From: Chthonomonas calidirosea | Lineage (GTDB): Bacteria; Armatimonadota; Chthonomonadetes; Chthonomonadales; CAJBBX01 | Reading direction: 5' to 3' | Assembly (NCBI GenBank): GCA_020722705.1 | Contig: DYKI01000026.1 | Coordinates: forward strand, 9,220 to 34,994 | Length of the DNA: 25,775 nucleotides | Shown here: one piece after another, positions 1 through 10,020 of the stretch | How the letters are laid out: each line of letters starts with the position of its first letter | Numbering within the stretch: the first letter of the stretch is position 1 | Translations under genes and position numbers: made by a program | The notes under the pieces: generated by a model | Told to the model about the DNA's origin: nothing | The model's database searches: none | What the model saw: only the letters and a program-made list of their open reading frames with translations

Positions 1-119
1 TGACGGCGAGGACGCCGTCCCTCCCGCTGACGGCGAGGACGCCGTCCCTCCCGCTGACGGCGAGGACGCCGTCCCTCCCGCATGACGGCGAGGACGCCGT
101 CCCTCCCGCATGACGGGCG
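1..119. repeat. Tandem array of a 27-28 bp palindromic unit TGACGGCGAGGACGCCGTCCCTCCCGC(A): four complete head-to-tail copies (1-27, 28-54, 55-82, 83-110) plus a degenerate fifth start (111-119). The array is cut by the window edge and may continue upstream.
   Basis: Seen directly. Units abut with no spacers. Each unit contains the hairpin GACGGCG/AGGA/CGCCGTC followed by CCTCCC. The same core recurs at 2675-2699, 3363-3387, 9858-9882 and inverted at 9997-10020. Confidence 0.9.
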
Positions 120-1468: not shown

Positions 1469-1999
1469 TCAGGGCGACGGATGCTCGTCGGGTCTGGACC
1501 GCTCCATGGACCAACTGTCGTTGCGACGACGGAATGTGGCCTGCCCCGTGATGACGAAGCCCATGCTTCGGTAGAGGCGCTCGGCTCGCGCGTTGGTCTT
1601 GACGACATTCAGCGACACCACGGGCACCTTGAGACGGTCGGTCTCGTGCAGCAGCAACTGCATCAGTCGTCGACCGTGACCCTGGCCGATCACGGAATCG
1701 TGGAGGCCGATCCCGAGCATGGGGCGTGAACATCCGATGCCCTGGACAAACGCGTGGCCCAGTATCCGTCGGCCCCGCCCGAAAAGCCCCAGACTGATGC
1801 AGAGCCCCGAGCGGACCATGTCGAAGTGCTCTCGAATGGCGTCGGGCGAGACGTAGTCGGTGGGCAGGAACATGCGCGCTACGGGCGGGGACAAGGAGCG
1901 GTAGAACGCCAGCAGCTCCGGCGCGTCGTCAGGCGCCAGACGGCATATGCTCAGGTCTGTTTCAGGCAGCAATGCTTGTACTTGCGTCCGCTGCCGCAC
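1469..1999 (-). CDS. GNAT family N-acetyltransferase. Start uncertain: GTG at 1999 would overlap the anSME 3' end by 49 nt.
   Basis: Acetyl-CoA binding motif A (QGIGCSRPMLGIGLHDSVIGQGHGRRLMQLL). Size about 170 aa. No in-frame ATG before residue 42. Confidence 0.7.
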   Translation of the reverse strand: MRQRTQVQALLPETDLSICRLAPDDAPELLAFYRSLSPPVARMFLPTDYVSPDAIREHFDMVRSGLCISLGLFGRGRRILGHAFVQGIGCSRPMLGIGLHDSVIGQGHGRRLMQLLLHETDRLKVPVVSLNVVKTNARAERLYRSMGFVITGQATFRRRNDSWSMERSRPDEHPSP

Positions 2000-3357
2000 G
2001 GGCAGGGGGCATTGCGGCCAACGGCCCGATTGGCAACGGGTATCGGGGATGCGCCGCCGCGGCGATCGGCCATGGCGTACATCCCCATGATCTCGGCTGG
2101 AGCGCGCTGAGCCTCCAGCAGTTGTGTCATCAGCCGCATATCTCTGTCAATGTGGTTGAAGAAGCGCTTGTACGACGGGCACAGGTAGTTGAGCCCGGGC
2201 TCACCATCGGGGGTCCGGCAGAAACGGTGCTTCGGGCACTCGCCGCGACAGGCAAAGAGAACCTCGCATGAACGGCAGTGGGCGGGCAGGCTGTCGCGCT
2301 TGGCATCGCCGAATGCGGTCTGCTTGGGTGAGATCACCATTGTGCGGATGTTCTGCTCCATGATGTTGCCGAGCCGGTGCTCCGGATACACGTAGTGATC
2401 GCATGCGTACAGGTCGCCGTTGTGTTCGAGAGCCATGCCGCGCCCGCACGTTTCGGCGAAGACACAGAGGGAGGCGCCGGCTCCGGCCCATATGCCCAAC
2501 GCTGTGTCGAATATCTGCACGAACACGCGCGCTACATCGTTGCGGACCCACTCGTCGTAAATCGCGCACAGGAAGATGCCAAACTGCTCGGCCTCCACGC
2601 TCCAGTCGGTGACCCTTGGGGCGGCCAGGTCGTCATCCACATCGGGAGGGCCTGCGAGCACATGCCCGGGTTTCGGACGGCGAGGACGCCGTCCCTCCCC
2701 ATCGGGAGGGTCACTGTCCTCGGTGACCGGTTTTGCGGACGGCGGCAGCCGTTCAACCAGTGGGATGAACTGGAGGAAGCGCGATCCGGCCTCCTTGAGG
2801 AACCGGTAGACCTCGAGCGGATGGTGGGCGTTGAGGCGGTTGACAACGGTCAGCGTGTTGAACTCGACGCGGTGCTTCTGCATGAGTTCGAGGCCGCGCA
2901 TGACACGGTCGAAGGATGGCCTGTCGCGCTTGTCGCGGCGATATGCATCATGCAGCTCACGTGGTCCATCCAGGCTCAGGCCGACCAGGAACTCGTGGTC
3001 ATGCAGAAACGAGCACCACTCATCGTCGAGAAGGGTGCCGTTGGTTTGAATCGCGTTGGTGATCCGCTTGCCGCGTGCGTGCTTCCGTTGCAGTTCCACG
3101 ACCTTGCGGAAGAAGCGAACCCCCAACAGCGTGGGCTCGCCCCCCTGCCAGGCGAAGTTGACCTCCGGAACTTCCTGAGCTGCGATATAGTCTCGGATGT
3201 AGCGCTCCAGCACCTCATCCGACATTGCCCATCGCCGATTGCCCGGAAAGAGATCCTCCTTCTGCAGATAGAAGCAGTATCGGCAGTCAAGGTTGCAGAT
3301 CGGCCCGATGGGCTTCGTCATTACATGAAACGCCAGCGGGCTCTTGGGAGCGGTCAT
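1951..3357 (-). CDS. Anaerobic sulfatase-maturating enzyme (radical SAM / SPASM). Carries a 20-aa repeat-derived insertion and a C-terminal SEC-C motif extension.
   Basis: CNLDCRYCFY (CxxxCxxC radical-SAM cluster), GGEPTL, multiple C-terminal Cys clusters (CRSCEVLFACRGECPKH, CPSY) typical of SPASM. C-terminal NAPCPCGSGRKYKHCC is the SEC-C metal-binding motif. ATGA overlap with the upstream sulfatase stop at 3354-3357. Confidence 0.85.
   Translation of the reverse strand: MTAPKSPLAFHVMTKPIGPICNLDCRYCFYLQKEDLFPGNRRWAMSDEVLERYIRDYIAAQEVPEVNFAWQGGEPTLLGVRFFRKVVELQRKHARGKRITNAIQTNGTLLDDEWCSFLHDHEFLVGLSLDGPRELHDAYRRDKRDRPSFDRVMRGLELMQKHRVEFNTLTVVNRLNAHHPLEVYRFLKEAGSRFLQFIPLVERLPPSAKPVTEDSDPPDGEGRRPRRPKPGHVLAGPPDVDDDLAAPRVTDWSVEAEQFGIFLCAIYDEWVRNDVARVFVQIFDTALGIWAGAGASLCVFAETCGRGMALEHNGDLYACDHYVYPEHRLGNIMEQNIRTMVISPKQTAFGDAKRDSLPAHCRSCEVLFACRGECPKHRFCRTPDGEPGLNYLCPSYKRFFNHIDRDMRLMTQLLEAQRAPAEIMGMYAMADRRGGASPIPVANRAVGRNAPCPCGSGRKYKHCCLKQT
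2644..2700. mobile_element. MITE/RPE-like insertion of the palindromic element inside the anSME ORF. Net 60 bp (in frame), flanked by a 10-bp direct repeat ATCGGGAGGG (2641-2650 and 2701-2710). Imperfect terminal inverted repeat GGGAGGGCC ... GTCCCTCCC.
   Basis: Seen directly. The core GGACGGCGAGGACGCCGTCCCTCCC sits at 2675-2699. The protein shows a duplicated PPD flanking the 20 inserted residues GEGRRPRRPKPGHVLAGPPD. Confidence 0.6.
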
Positions 3358-4715
3358 TTTCTGGACGGCGAGGACGCCGTCCCTCCCGTCGCTCTAACGG
3401 GGAACTCCGAGCTTTCGGTCCTTGCATCGCGGAGGAACGCCGCCATCCGATCGGCCACGTCCGGGTGTCGGTCGGCGATGTTGTCGCGCTCGCCCGGATC
3501 GTTGTTCAGGGCGTAGAGCTCCAGACTGGTCTGCCCTGCACGCCGGACGGCCTTCCACGATCCCATCCGGGCTGCCTGGCTGAATCCGCCTTCGTGGAAC
3601 TCCCAGTACAACGGCGGTCTGTACAGCAGCTTTCGCCCGAGCATGGCCGGCAGGACGGACACGCCGTCGGTGTTCGCCGGCACGGGCTTGTTGAGGAGTT
3701 CGCAGACGGTGGGCAGGAAATCCCAGAATGCCCACGGTTCATTGCTGACGCTGCCTGACTTGATCCGGTCGGGCCAGCGCACGATCATCGGAACCCTGAT
3801 GCCGCCCTCGTAGAGATCGCGCTTGATGCCGCGCAGCGGGCCGCTGCTGTCGAAGAAGGCGGGGTTGTGGCCGCCTTCCCTGTGCGGCCCATTGTCGCTG
3901 GTGAAGAAGACTATCGTGTTGCGCGTCAAGCCAAGCGCATCGAGCCGCTGGAGGATCGTGCCGATGCCCCGATCCATCCGGGTGATCGCTGACGCGAAGA
4001 GCTTCTCCGTCTCGGGCCAGTCGGCGTCCCTGTACTCGGGCTCGATGCGCGGAGCCTCCATCGTTCGGGCTGTGCTGTTGGCGTGCGGGGCGGTGTAGGC
4101 CAAATAGAGGAAGAAGGGCCGATCGGCGCTCCGCTCGACGAAACTCAGGGCCTCACGCGTGAACAGATCGTTGGAGTAAGCGCCTCGACGGTTCTGATCG
4201 TTCTCGTAGATGGCTTCGACAGAATCGTTGCGCCAGAGCTGTGTGGGAAAGCTGTTGTGCGCGAGCGCCTGATTCAGGTATCCGAAGAAGAAGTCGAAGC
4301 CTTGTCGGTTTGGAATGCCTGTGGTTGCCGGTTCGCCGAGCCCCCACTTGCCGACGAGAGCAGTGGCGTAACCGGCGGATCGGAATATGCCTGCAACCGA
4401 GTTCTCGCCTGGGCGCAGAGGAACGAGCGCGTTTCCGCGCACGAATGCATGCCCGGAATGCAGACCAGTCATCAAACAGCACCGGGATGGTGCGCAGACC
4501 GTGCTGCCCGCATAGCATTGGGTGAAGCGCAGGCCGCGCGTGGCCAATCTGTCAATGTTGGGCGTTTTGATCCTGGTCTGCCCGTAGCATCCCAGGTCGC
4601 CGTAGCCAAGATCGTCGGCGAGGATGAAAACGACATTGGGCGGACGGCTCGGCGGTTCGCCTGTCGTTGAAACGTGTATCGGCGTGGCGGCAAGCATGGT
4701 CGCGATAGGCAGCAT
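3354..4715 (-). CDS. Cys-type sulfatase of the arylsulfatase / N-acetylglucosamine-6-sulfatase family, probably secreted. Likely ATG start at 4715 with an upstream GGGAG; the track's 4751 start is GTG.
   Basis: Sulfatase signature CAPSRCCLMTG (C-x-P-x-R), N-terminal FILADDLGYGDLGCYG, GKWGLG. Hydrophobic N-terminus MLPIATMLAATPIHV. The stop overlaps the anSME start (ATGA). Confidence 0.85.
   Translation of the reverse strand: MLPIATMLAATPIHVSTTGEPPSRPPNVVFILADDLGYGDLGCYGQTRIKTPNIDRLATRGLRFTQCYAGSTVCAPSRCCLMTGLHSGHAFVRGNALVPLRPGENSVAGIFRSAGYATALVGKWGLGEPATTGIPNRQGFDFFFGYLNQALAHNSFPTQLWRNDSVEAIYENDQNRRGAYSNDLFTREALSFVERSADRPFFLYLAYTAPHANSTARTMEAPRIEPEYRDADWPETEKLFASAITRMDRGIGTILQRLDALGLTRNTIVFFTSDNGPHREGGHNPAFFDSSGPLRGIKRDLYEGGIRVPMIVRWPDRIKSGSVSNEPWAFWDFLPTVCELLNKPVPANTDGVSVLPAMLGRKLLYRPPLYWEFHEGGFSQAARMGSWKAVRRAGQTSLELYALNNDPGERDNIADRHPDVADRMAAFLRDARTESSEFPVRATGGTASSPSRK
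3363..3387. repeat. Solo copy of the palindromic element, lying inside the last 9 codons of the sulfatase and immediately 5' (on the mRNA) of the anSME start codon.
   Basis: Exact 25/25 match to the core GGACGGCGAGGACGCCGTCCCTCCC. Its minus-strand translation gives the sulfatase C-terminus ...TGGTASSPSRK*. Confidence 0.85.
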
Positions 4716-6353: not shown

Positions 6354-7979
6354 ATGACTGACATAGCGCGCGCTTGCCGGTGGATGGTCACGTTCGCAGC
6401 TTTGTTTGCGCTCGTACGCAGCGCTCATGGAGCTGAGGTAACGCTCAGTGTGGCCGATGGCGAGCGCCTCGCCGATCGGGTCACCATCACGGCGCGGGTC
6501 ACCGGCTTCGAGGAAACCGGGGTTCGGCAAGTGGCATTCAGTGTTGACGGTGTCGAGCGTGGCACCGACAGCAGCATCCCCTATACCCTCGATTGGGATA
6601 CTGTGAACGAGTCCGACGGCCGGCACCGGCTGGCTGCCGTTGCTACCGATATGGGCGGCGCTGCGGCACGAACCGAAGTGACCGTCGTCGTGGACAACGA
6701 ACTGAGCAAGGGCGCCGAGCATCATGGGCGCATCGCACTCGAGGCGCTCAAGGCGGGCGACCTACCGCGTGCCACTCGCCATGCCCGTCGCGCCGTCAAG
6801 GTGGACCCAACCAACCTCAGCGCCGCACGCGCCCTGGCTTCCATCCATCGGCTGGCTAAGGAGTATGACAAGGCGATCGGGGTACTGGAGCAGGCACAGA
6901 TACCTGAAGACAACGTCCCCGTTCGGACCGAGCTGGCGGCCCTCTACGTCCTTCGCGGTGATGCCGGCGAGACGATGGAGGCCCTCGTCATGGGCGCCAA
7001 CACCGGTCTGGAGCAGCATCGAAAGGCTCTGTTGGCCAGTCGGGACGCCTTGAAGTCGGATGCGCCGCCCGAGCAGCGGGGCGATGCGGCCTTTGCACTG
7101 CGAGATTGGGCCGGGGCCATACGGGCTTACCAGATGGCGGGCGATGCCTCCACGGCATCATTGGGCTCTGTCAATCGGCTGATGGTGGCCTACGCCAGAG
7201 CGGGCCGGAGACGCGATCTCGATGTGCTTCTGCGTACCTTGAAGCGCGAGGAGCGTGGTGACGACATCACCAGGGCGGCACACGCGTACTGCCTCCTGGC
7301 GTCGCACAAGCCGAATGAGGCGCGAGCGCTGATCGAGCAGGGCGTCCAGAATCGTGTGTATCCGTCGCTCTATCTTGCGGCCTGTGCTGACCTCATCATC
7401 GGCAACAAGAAGGTGGCGGGCGAGGAGATCACGGCACTGGCCGAGATGCGGCCCGGCTCTCCCGAAGTGCTGCTCCTGCAGTCTCTGGTTGCCAAGGAAC
7501 CCCTCGATGTTCGAGCCCACATCGTCGGCGCGATGGCCCTCATGCCGTCGTGGCCCGAGGCGTATGTGCGGATGGCCGGCGACCTTATCGGAAGCAACAG
7601 GCCAAAGCGCATGGAAGATGCCGAGACCATGCTCGGTATCGCTCGGAAAGCCGACCGGGACGCTCCCGATGCCCTGATGGTGACAGCCGCCCTCCTGATG
7701 GTTCAGCGTCGGCCAGAGGAGGCGCAGCCCATCCTTGCACGTGTGTTGGAACTCGATCCGGAGGCCCCGGACGCTCTCGTAGGCATGGCCCTGAACTGCA
7801 GCATGCTGGATAGGACACGCGAGATCACCGACCTGCTGGCCAGGGCCATGAAGGTCAGTGACGTGCTGTGGAACGATGTCTTCGTGCCCAAGCCGCTCGA
7901 CTTTCTGAGGCGGGTGCTGCAGTATCGCATACCGATCCTGATGACGCCGGACGTCCTGTATCCGACCGGCACGAGGTAG
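6354..7979 (+). CDS. Secreted protein with an N-terminal bacterial Ig-like domain followed by TPR repeats. ATG at 6354 is preferred over 6345 on AGGAG spacing.
   Basis: Signal peptide MTDIARACRWMVTFAALFALVRSAHGA. Ig-like segment ...VAFSVDGVERGTDSSIPYTLDWDTVNESDGRHRLAAVATDMGG...VVVDN. Helical repeat region with TPR-like A/L/Y periodicity. Confidence 0.7.
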   Translation: MTDIARACRWMVTFAALFALVRSAHGAEVTLSVADGERLADRVTITARVTGFEETGVRQVAFSVDGVERGTDSSIPYTLDWDTVNESDGRHRLAAVATDMGGAAARTEVTVVVDNELSKGAEHHGRIALEALKAGDLPRATRHARRAVKVDPTNLSAARALASIHRLAKEYDKAIGVLEQAQIPEDNVPVRTELAALYVLRGDAGETMEALVMGANTGLEQHRKALLASRDALKSDAPPEQRGDAAFALRDWAGAIRAYQMAGDASTASLGSVNRLMVAYARAGRRRDLDVLLRTLKREERGDDITRAAHAYCLLASHKPNEARALIEQGVQNRVYPSLYLAACADLIIGNKKVAGEEITALAEMRPGSPEVLLLQSLVAKEPLDVRAHIVGAMALMPSWPEAYVRMAGDLIGSNRPKRMEDAETMLGIARKADRDAPDALMVTAALLMVQRRPEEAQPILARVLELDPEAPDALVGMALNCSMLDRTREITDLLARAMKVSDVLWNDVFVPKPLDFLRRVLQYRIPILMTPDVLYPTGTR

Positions 7980-9857: not shown

Positions 9858-10020
9858 GGACGGCGGGGACGCCGTCCCTCCCACATTCGAAGGAGAAAGG
9901 GGCAGGACTGCAGCGTCGTGTGCCCGAATGTATCCCCATGACGCGGGTACCATCCTGCGAAATGTGGGGCATTGGGGACGATGACCCACCCGATCCGGGA
10001 GGGACGGTGTCCCCGCCGTC
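9858..10020. mobile_element. Composite MITE-like element. 25-bp terminal inverted repeats (left GGACGGCGGGGACGCCGTCCCTCCC at 9858-9882; right GGGAGGGACGGTGTCCCCGCCGTC at 9997-10020) are variants of the palindromic core. They enclose a 114-bp structured core with internal inverted repeats ACATTCG/CGAATGT and CCCCA/TGGGG.
   Basis: Seen directly. Sits in the DppA-to-isomerase intergenic region, 37 nt upstream of the isomerase GTG start. Confidence 0.7.

Follow-up and report, generated by a model that had tools for sequence, protein, structure and literature searches.

The window considered here is a 25,775-nucleotide stretch of contig DYKI01000026.1 (GenBank assembly GCA_020722705.1, Chthonomonas calidirosea). 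Within it, a gene for a predicted anaerobic sulfatase-maturating enzyme (anSME) contains a short sequence twice, 60 nt apart, with a copy of a palindromic element between the two. The question raised by this locus is whether the element was inserted into the coding sequence and, if so, whether the direct repeat is the footprint of that event. An earlier note on this DNA had answered yes to both, describing a 60-bp insertion of a MITE (a miniature transposable element with inverted repeats), with a 10-bp target-site duplication (TSD) and 20 residues added to the protein. The comparisons presented here support the view that the repeat was inserted in frame into the anSME, in a linker of variable length. 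As to its nature, the locus is probably explained by a dimer of repetitive extragenic palindromic (REP) units, of a family of the type associated with REP-associated tyrosine transposases (RAYTs), that entered this linker in frame and without a TSD.

The host gene is an intact open reading frame (ORF) for a protein with radical SAM, SPASM and C-terminal SEC-C regions (Pfam PF04055, PF13186 and PF02810). Its product matched the anSMEcpe structures 4k36-4k39 with an E value of 1e-65, the same four entries were the top fold matches in the PDB for its AlphaFold model, and the CX3CX2C motif and the SPASM cysteines, both intact, occupy invariant columns of a 24-sequence alignment. By these sequence and fold comparisons, the host gene is identified as that of an anSME.

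The 10-mer ATCGGGAGGG was found exactly twice in the window, at 2641-2650 and 2701-2710, and the direct repeat really extends to the 11 nt CATCGGGAGGG (2640-2650 and 2700-2710), an 11-mer present nowhere else in the window. The 24-nt core of the repeat element, GACGGCGAGGACGCCGTCCCTCCC, is present in exact form between them (2676-2699). At the protein level, the PPD motif is doubled and the reading frame is kept. Up to this point the earlier description holds. When random window positions were compared with the 65-nt insert sequence, a direct match of at least 11 nt within ±100 nt was expected in ~2% of cases, and 7 of the 11 bases of CATCGGGAGGG are the GGGAGGG tag of the repeat family itself. 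With that chance expectation, the 11-nt repeat is unusual but not compelling.

The size of the insert was given by comparison with orthologues. When 5.8 billion proteins were searched for homologues, the identical protein P0001 came first, followed by homologues labelled Chthonomonadales or Armatimonadota (75-83% identity by BLASTP, 78-86% in the alignment). The DNA of five orthologous loci (L001-L005, 81-86% identity in alignment A1) was then compared; these are syntenic with the window for the sulfatase, anSME, acetyltransferase and histidine kinase genes. In the codon alignment, the window anSME had exactly 16 additional codons (48 nt) with respect to all five orthologues, and the 16-residue segment was missing in 23 of 23 aligned homologues, namely the five nearest orthologues and 18 more distant ones. 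The peptide encoded by the units was found only in P0001 among 120 homologues, and a unit scan of ~40 kb of the orthologue loci detected no REP units. The insertion itself, proposed in the earlier note, is thus borne out by every orthologue examined, and its expectation for the orthologues was right in part: all five lack the insert and L003 and L004 carry GGC CCT CCC GAT, but the gap is of 16 codons and not of 20.

The alignment gap falls directly upstream, in the sense of the protein, of the motif H-x-L-A-G-P-P(D), in which the positions L234, A235 and P237 do not vary among the 24 aligned sequences; H-V-L-A-G is contiguous with P-P-D in every orthologue. Because the motif is conserved and the codons GGC CCT CCC GAT are nucleotide-identical in the unit-free L003 and L004, G-H-V-L-A-G-P-P-D is considered native and the repeat copy at 2641-2650 ancestral. 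A TSD would have to border the inserted DNA directly. As 14 nt of native codons (HVLAG) separate this first copy from the insert, the 60-bp size, the reading of the repeat as a TSD and the '20 inserted residues' (GEGRRPRRPKPGHVLAGPPD) are all refuted: the net gain is 48 nt, and what the orthologues lack are 16 residues. The features of the host gene and the insert are as follows.

1951 to 3357, minus strand: anSME gene, 468 residues, ORF with radical SAM, SPASM and the C-terminal SEC-C motif; intact.
2641 to 2667, minus strand: native codons G-H-V-L-A-G-P-P-D, a conserved motif in the alignments, including the first repeat copy at 2640-2650.
2665 to 2712, minus strand: net gain of 48 nt (16 codons), encoding DPPDGEGRRPRRPKPG, as placed by codon alignment with L001-L005.
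2665 to 2674, plus strand: left flank CCCGGGTTTC, with the conserved form C(C/A)CGGGTTTCG, also present beside the copy in L031 (CACGGGTTTCG, then GACGGCG).
2675 to 2699, minus strand: REP unit B, GGACGGCGAGGACGCCGTCCCTCCC, with the exact 24-nt core; its tag is at the right end on the plus strand.
2700 to 2703, no strand assigned: CATC spacer between the two tags of the dimer.
2700 to 2710, no strand assigned: second copy of CATCGGGAGGG, made of the dimer spacer and the tag of unit A; no TSD.
2704 to 2728, plus strand: REP unit A, GGGAGGGTCACTGTCCTCGGTGACC, with its tag at the left end; hairpin predicted.

Read on the minus strand, unit B consists of the GGGAGGG tag followed by a predicted hairpin with an 8-bp stem (GGACGGCG/CGCCGTCC) and a 4-nt loop. 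Unit A, overlooked in the earlier note, is a second hairpin unit whose tag is the second repeat copy: the tag GGGAGGG, the stem strand TCACTG, the loop TCCT, the opposite strand CGGTGA with one T.G pair, and a final CC. It is identical at 23 of 25 nt to a unit in L014. Units A and B are oppositely oriented, the two GGGAGGG tags being turned towards each other over the 4-nt spacer, which makes the anSME insert a REP dimer of the tag-to-tag kind ('TT', tags inside, in Di Nocera's nomenclature). When folded as a single strand, either as DNA or as mRNA, three successive hairpins were predicted: unit B, a CCCTC/GGAGG pairing across the spacer, and unit A. Where the earlier note saw a second copy of the 10-mer, the sequence is therefore the ATC of the spacer plus the GGGAGGG tag. 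The duplication is treated here as a coincidence between the native Pro-Pro-Asp codons and the spacer and tag of the element, although an insertion preference for tag-like targets is possible.

The CATC tag-to-tag junction gave five matches in metagenome contigs, all of them unrelated small hairpins without REP units. For this reason, the membership of the dimer in the element rests on the hairpin of unit A and on a paralogue within the window, the dimer at 9969-10020 on the minus strand, which is formed by a unit B, a GGATC spacer and a degenerate unit A (GGGTGGGTCATCGTCCCCAATGC). Other matches of at least 11 nt between the insert and the window (21839 and 22826) were rejected as chance matches in coding DNA without units.

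The family to which these units belong was characterised by a core scan over one genome per species in GTDB. At least 59 loci were found, and 115 copies with their flanks were aligned among the matches listed, which are also the scope of the counts, arrangements and taxonomic labels given below for the family. The common unit, of ~25 nt, comprises the GGGAGGG tag, a 6-nt stem, a TCCT or TCCC loop (TCCY) and the complementary stem, which reaches 8 bp where the last GG of the tag pairs with the CC that follows; GGGAGGG precedes the stem in all units. Covariation was assayed in 68 matches chosen on the tag and loop only, leaving out the ACGGCG stem that had been used for fetching. Their stems were varied (CCGGCG, TCGCCG, ACGCCG, TCATCG, TCCGCG and TCACGG, among others), and were complementary at 6 of 6 positions in 49 of the 68 and at 5 of 6 in a further 16, so that 65 of 68 paired at five or more positions. 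It is the hairpin rather than its sequence that is conserved, through compensatory covariation. Units are often arranged in inverted doublets and arrays, with dozens of copies in the metagenome-assembled genome (MAG) STL-VER8.

The link of this family to a transposase was seen at three loci. In L015, an ORF at 62-505 that is flanked by units was recognised by the NCBIfam model NF047646, 'REP-associated tyrosine transposase', with 81.9 bits (cut-off 80) and an E value of 4e-23; Pfam did not recognise it (PF01797, E 0.16). The RAYT P0166 of STL-VER8 (L067 1501-1977) is 63% identical to the L015 transposase, and both sides of its gene bear tag-to-tag dimers of the form CCCTCCC, 13 nt, GGGAGGG. 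In the Nitrospiraceae MAG locus L008, a RAYT-like ORF at 2867-3397 (phmmer E 5.5e-29) is flanked and interrupted by the exact core, being broken at both ends by REP doublets (REPINs) of ~150 nt bounded by that core. There, the putative transposase seems to have been disrupted by its own element, and the C-terminus of this ORF (...EGRRPRRPK...) is the same unit-encoded peptide that is seen in the anSME. The element is therefore a REP hairpin family associated with Y1 (RAYT) transposases, and not the MITE that the earlier note had proposed: it is a tagged, RAYT-associated hairpin, with neither a TSD nor terminal inverted repeats.

Under the explanation that we consider probable, a RAYT transposase of the HUH/Y1 type would copy the units as single-stranded hairpins, without making a TSD, and a RAYT of the source genome would have mobilised them. 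Selection would then have retained only insertions whose net length was a multiple of three and that fell in a length-tolerant loop, the 16 extra residues being neutral or nearly so.

Several observations weigh against this reading. The right boundary of the insert is ambiguous, with a net gain of 48 nt (2665-2712) compared to at least 64 nt of element-like sequence (2665-2728), so that some of the native linker was replaced or, alternatively, no simple cut-and-paste or copy-in took place. The chance expectation for the 11-nt repeat is only ~2%. No RAYT gene was detected in the 25.8 kb from the source genome, and for that reason its mobilisation by a resident RAYT is inferred only. The protein database held no near-identical empty-site allele, the cluster of P0001 having a single member and the next match being at 83% (BLASTP) or 86% (alignment) identity, and the exact native flank GGGAGGGCCTGCGAGCACATG gave 0 matches in metagenome contigs. 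The AlphaFold model on which the position of the linker is based is moderate, with a mean pLDDT of 69.6 from a 24-sequence alignment. Because a near-identical empty-site allele was not found, the exact junctions cannot be read; if the orthologues are used to define the boundaries, no duplication flanks the insert. The left boundary is at 2665 ±2, where the orthologue alignment and the element flank agree. On the right, a clean 48-nt insertion would need native sequence to complete the hairpin of unit A, which is very unlikely; the other possibility is that 64-80 nt of a REP array replaced 16-32 nt of the native linker of 12-14 residues, perhaps via microhomology.

The ambiguity on the right side speaks for a first alternative, in which a fragment of a REP array (B, A and the start of a further B') was copied by microhomology-driven template switching or illegitimate recombination at stalled hairpins, without a RAYT, replacing part of a native linker of 12-14 residues. 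The element-like sequence, 2665-2728 and possibly up to 2745, exceeds the net gain of 48 nt. Unit A is followed by a 9-nt spacer and GACGGCGG, an arrangement resembling that of the A-spacer-B dimers in L014, L009 and L030; this sequence runs into the native CGGCGG, whose Pro-Pro codons L002 shares. On the left, native sequence similar to the tag is found 14 nt away from the junction. Against template switching, the similarities invoked are of 5-8 nt in GC-rich DNA, the residues TEDS of the window resemble AEAS and TEAK of the orthologues at the same position, which would favour a clean 48-nt insertion, and a donor array with a CATC spacer was not found in metagenome contigs. Altogether, we consider this route unlikely, and RAYT-type insertion of the dimer is preferred. 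In the same region, the native ERLPPS codons (2729-2757; plus strand, GGACGGCGGCAGCCGTTC) can form a 5-bp hairpin whose first 8 nt are those of unit B; being 9 nt away from unit A, it has the look of an A-spacer-B dimer, either by chance, as may happen in GC-rich DNA, or as the trace of a microhomology junction.

With regard to the protein, the insert lies between the last core strand of the radical-SAM domain (FIPLVE, E194-199) and the helix at 256-273, after beta-6 of the barrel and directly N-terminal to the HxLAGPP motif. In the AlphaFold model, DSSP assigned no helix or strand to residues 204 to 248, and block-mean pLDDT values were 49-67 over residues 201-250, the linker being modelled as coil. 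This connection has ~9 residues in anSMEcpe (197-207), ~32 in the orthologues and 48 here (204-251), and the stretch from PLVER to xLAxP ranges from 4 to 30 residues among the 120 homologues, in agreement with the variable linker assumed in the earlier note. The composition of DPPDGEGRRPRRPKPG is rich in Pro, Arg and Gly and disorder-prone. In radical SAM folds of the TIM type, the loop after a beta-strand is at the catalytic face of the barrel. An effect on the anSME is thus possible, because the loop follows a catalytic-face strand and abuts HxLAGPP, although the added residues are most likely neutral. In the same protein, the C-terminus carries a SEC-C (SecA-type zinc-binding) motif, GRNxPCPCGSGxKxKxCC (1951-2040 in the window), that is kept in 24 of 24 aligned homologues; the solved anSMEcpe has no C-terminal SEC-C motif.

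A second coding insertion, also overlooked in the earlier note, was found in the adjacent sulfatase gene.

3354 to 4715, minus strand: Cys-type sulfatase gene, 453 residues, with a CAPSR motif (ORF, domain search and codon alignment).
3361 to 3390, minus strand: single REP unit B in the last sulfatase codons, placed by codon alignment with L001, L002, L003 and L005; the exact core spans 3364-3387.

This unit adds 30 nt, that is, 10 codons (TGGTASSPSR), and is read in a different frame of the unit from that used in the anSME. The sulfatase of the orthologues ends in ...EFPV-R/P-x-(x)-stop, whereas that of the window ends in ...EFPVRA-TGGTASSPSR-K-stop; the sulfatase stop overlaps the anSME start (ATGA), and this overlap is kept. 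A distance of 7 nt separates the end of the unit's predicted 8-bp hairpin from the anSME ATG, and GGAGG is part of the unit's tag. The placement of a GGAGG tag and a hairpin upstream of the overlapping anSME start could have an effect on translational coupling. In the best explanation, one process is taken to have placed both the dimer in the anSME and the single unit at the 3' end of the sulfatase gene.

These two insertions raise a second alternative, in which the basic Pro/Arg loop beside HxLAGPP or the mRNA hairpins have been co-opted and are now functional, through the sulfatase-anSME stoichiometry, mRNA stability or translational pausing. Two insertions of the same family in one two-gene operon, the stable mRNA hairpins predicted and the position of the junction unit, with its GGAGG and its end 7 nt from the ATG, are in its favour. 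However, there is no conservation outside this genome, the orthologues function without the insertion, and REP units are dense throughout the window (nine in 25.8 kb), so that selection is not required to explain two of them in a single operon. We therefore regard co-option as quite improbable.

Much less survives of the MITE, understood as an element of ~50 bp transposed into a single ATCGGGAGGG site with a 10-bp TSD and a total gain of 60 bp or 20 residues. It would account for an exact 10/11-nt direct repeat spaced by 60 nt, a multiple of 3, with the repeat core between the copies and a chance expectation of only ~2%. Nevertheless, the element would have to bring its own HVLAG, although every orthologue has these residues next to P-P-D; 48 nt were gained on balance and not 60; a well-formed second hairpin unit has the second copy as its tag; and the family goes with a transposase of the Y1/RAYT type, which makes no TSD. 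This reading is hardly credible. Equally little can be said for an assembly artefact of a repeat-rich MAG or a native lineage-specific linker that resembles the repeat by chance: the contig does end in a REP array whose register differs between two assemblies, so repeats disturb assembly, but the same gene sequence is present in the independent record L006 (GCA_975218785.1), both coding insertions are in frame with native sequence on either side, and chance cannot produce an exact 24-nt match together with a complete second unit; ~40 kb of orthologue loci contain zero units.

Outside the operon, the family is represented at two other places in the window.

1 to 110, minus strand: tandem array of four REP units (periods 27, 27 and 28 nt), located upstream of a HisKA gene where the contig ends.
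9858 to 10020, no strand assigned: intergenic REPIN-like inverted pair, with unit B (plus) at 9858-9882, the degenerate unit A at 9969-9991 and unit B (minus) at 9997-10020.

Altogether, the window contains nine REP units in 25.8 kb, three of them inside genes; the 24-nt core was detected in 8 copies at up to 3 mismatches, 6 of them exact, where 0 were expected. The L006 assembly differs from the window only in the register of the 1-110 array, which probably breaks assembly. As candidates for this tandem array, a CRISPR, a terminator and an attC site were rejected, its units being 3-4 nt apart without spacers, with no T-run and no R'/R'' attC boxes. The units of the intergenic pair are 114 nt apart, between Peptidase_M55 and AP_endonuc_2 genes, and the region 9858-10020 was predicted to fold as RNA into one long hairpin (-104.9 kcal/mol, z -6.8).

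The spread of the family was unusually broad as judged by the labels of the MAGs. The core was found in MAGs labelled Verrucomicrobiota, Planctomycetota, Kiritimatiellota (Kiritimatiellaeota), Nitrospirota (Nitrospiraceae) and Hydrogenedentota, and further in Bdellovibrionota, Sumerlaeota, Acidobacteriota (Chloracidobacterium) and Gammaproteobacteria. In its exact 24-nt form it is present in at least nine labelled phyla besides the Armatimonadota-like lineage of the window. Since the cores of REPs are as a rule specific to one lineage, an identical core across phyla suggests either horizontal spread of RAYT/REP systems or mis-binned contigs. Among 2.9 million viral contigs, one carried the exact core (L066, IMGVR_UViG_3300014205_001333, at 7358-7381). 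A permissive Rfam scan of the whole window matched no family, and searches of the searchable literature with the core and its sub-strings did not find it, returning two unrelated primer matches only. The tag GGGAG(GG) is outside the GTAG and CGTC consensus of the described superfamilies, and 'GGGAGG' is absent from the text of PMC3733652. It is conceivable, if rather doubtful, that the GGGAGGG hairpin represents an undescribed REP/RAYT superfamily with an identical core in at least ten phyla, spreading horizontally and readily colonising coding DNA, possibly guided by GGGAGGG-like targets (Pro-Pro codons); the argument depends on MAG taxonomy labels among the matches listed. If this were true, a horizontally spreading REPIN-RAYT system would contradict the prevailing picture of REPINs as vertical and lineage-specific.

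Leaving this possibility aside, the locus provides a clean, datable case of a REP dimer turned into protein sequence, beside a conserved loop motif and with a solved homologue and element-free orthologues at hand, and constitutes a natural experiment on the insertion tolerance of the beta6-alpha6 loop in a radical-SAM/SPASM enzyme. The second unit remodels the C-terminus of the partner sulfatase and a translationally coupled gene junction, and the locus also offers an entry point to a widespread and apparently uncatalogued REP family.

Insertions of this kind have precedents in several systems. The Rickettsia palindromic elements (RPEs), reportedly described by Ogata et al. in 2000 and cited in PMC3733652, are palindromic repeats that lie in frame within protein genes, are tolerated in surface or loop regions and are missing from orthologues. 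The anSME repeat resembles them in being in frame within an intact ORF whose orthologues are without it, and the same applies to the sulfatase. RPE-1 elements are AT-rich and ~100-150 bp long, and RPEs are not known to have a dedicated transposase; in contrast, the family described here is short, GC-rich and RAYT-linked, and a sequence relationship is not expected. MITEs such as Correia (CREE) and Nezha are likewise small non-autonomous repeats able to land in ORFs or fuse to them. They have terminal inverted repeats derived from insertion sequences (IS) and fixed-length TSDs made by DDE transposases, whereas the window element has neither IS-derived terminal inverted repeats nor a TSD.

REPIN-RAYT systems are closer. 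They are defined by hairpin-forming inverted doublets, a single-copy Y1 transposase gene flanked by units and no TSD (Nunvar 2010, PMC2817692; Bertels & Rainey 2011, PMC3116915). In the classical form, REPINs are lineage-specific and lie almost exclusively outside genes. The present family shares with them the inverted doublets and the RAYT genes flanked by units in L015 and L067. It differs from classical REPINs in that three of the nine window units are intragenic and the exact core occurs in at least nine other labelled phyla.

The closest match is to the intragenic REPs tagged with GTAG or CGTC that Di Nocera et al. (2013, PMC3733652) catalogued in several species, including the verrucomicrobium Opitutus terrae and Rickettsia conorii. 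In Opitutus terrae, dimers 1-2 bp apart encode 20-30 residues and double insertions per gene occur, and it was argued that intragenic REPs sit in flexible linkers (PMC3733652). Both sets are GC-rich stem-loops with an unpaired tag that are found as singletons and inverted dimers in conserved ORFs, sometimes as two insertions per gene or operon, and for which flexible loops have been proposed. They differ in the tag, GGGAG(GG) here, in the Armatimonadota-like MAG host, in the targets, which are an anSME and a sulfatase here and DNA repair or RNA genes there, and in the unusually wide distribution of the identical core. Judged from this feature-by-feature match to intragenic REPs, the phenomenon is already known, and our understanding of how such insertions arise is unchanged by the anSME case; what differs is the tag, the host lineage, the target operon and the breadth of the identical core.

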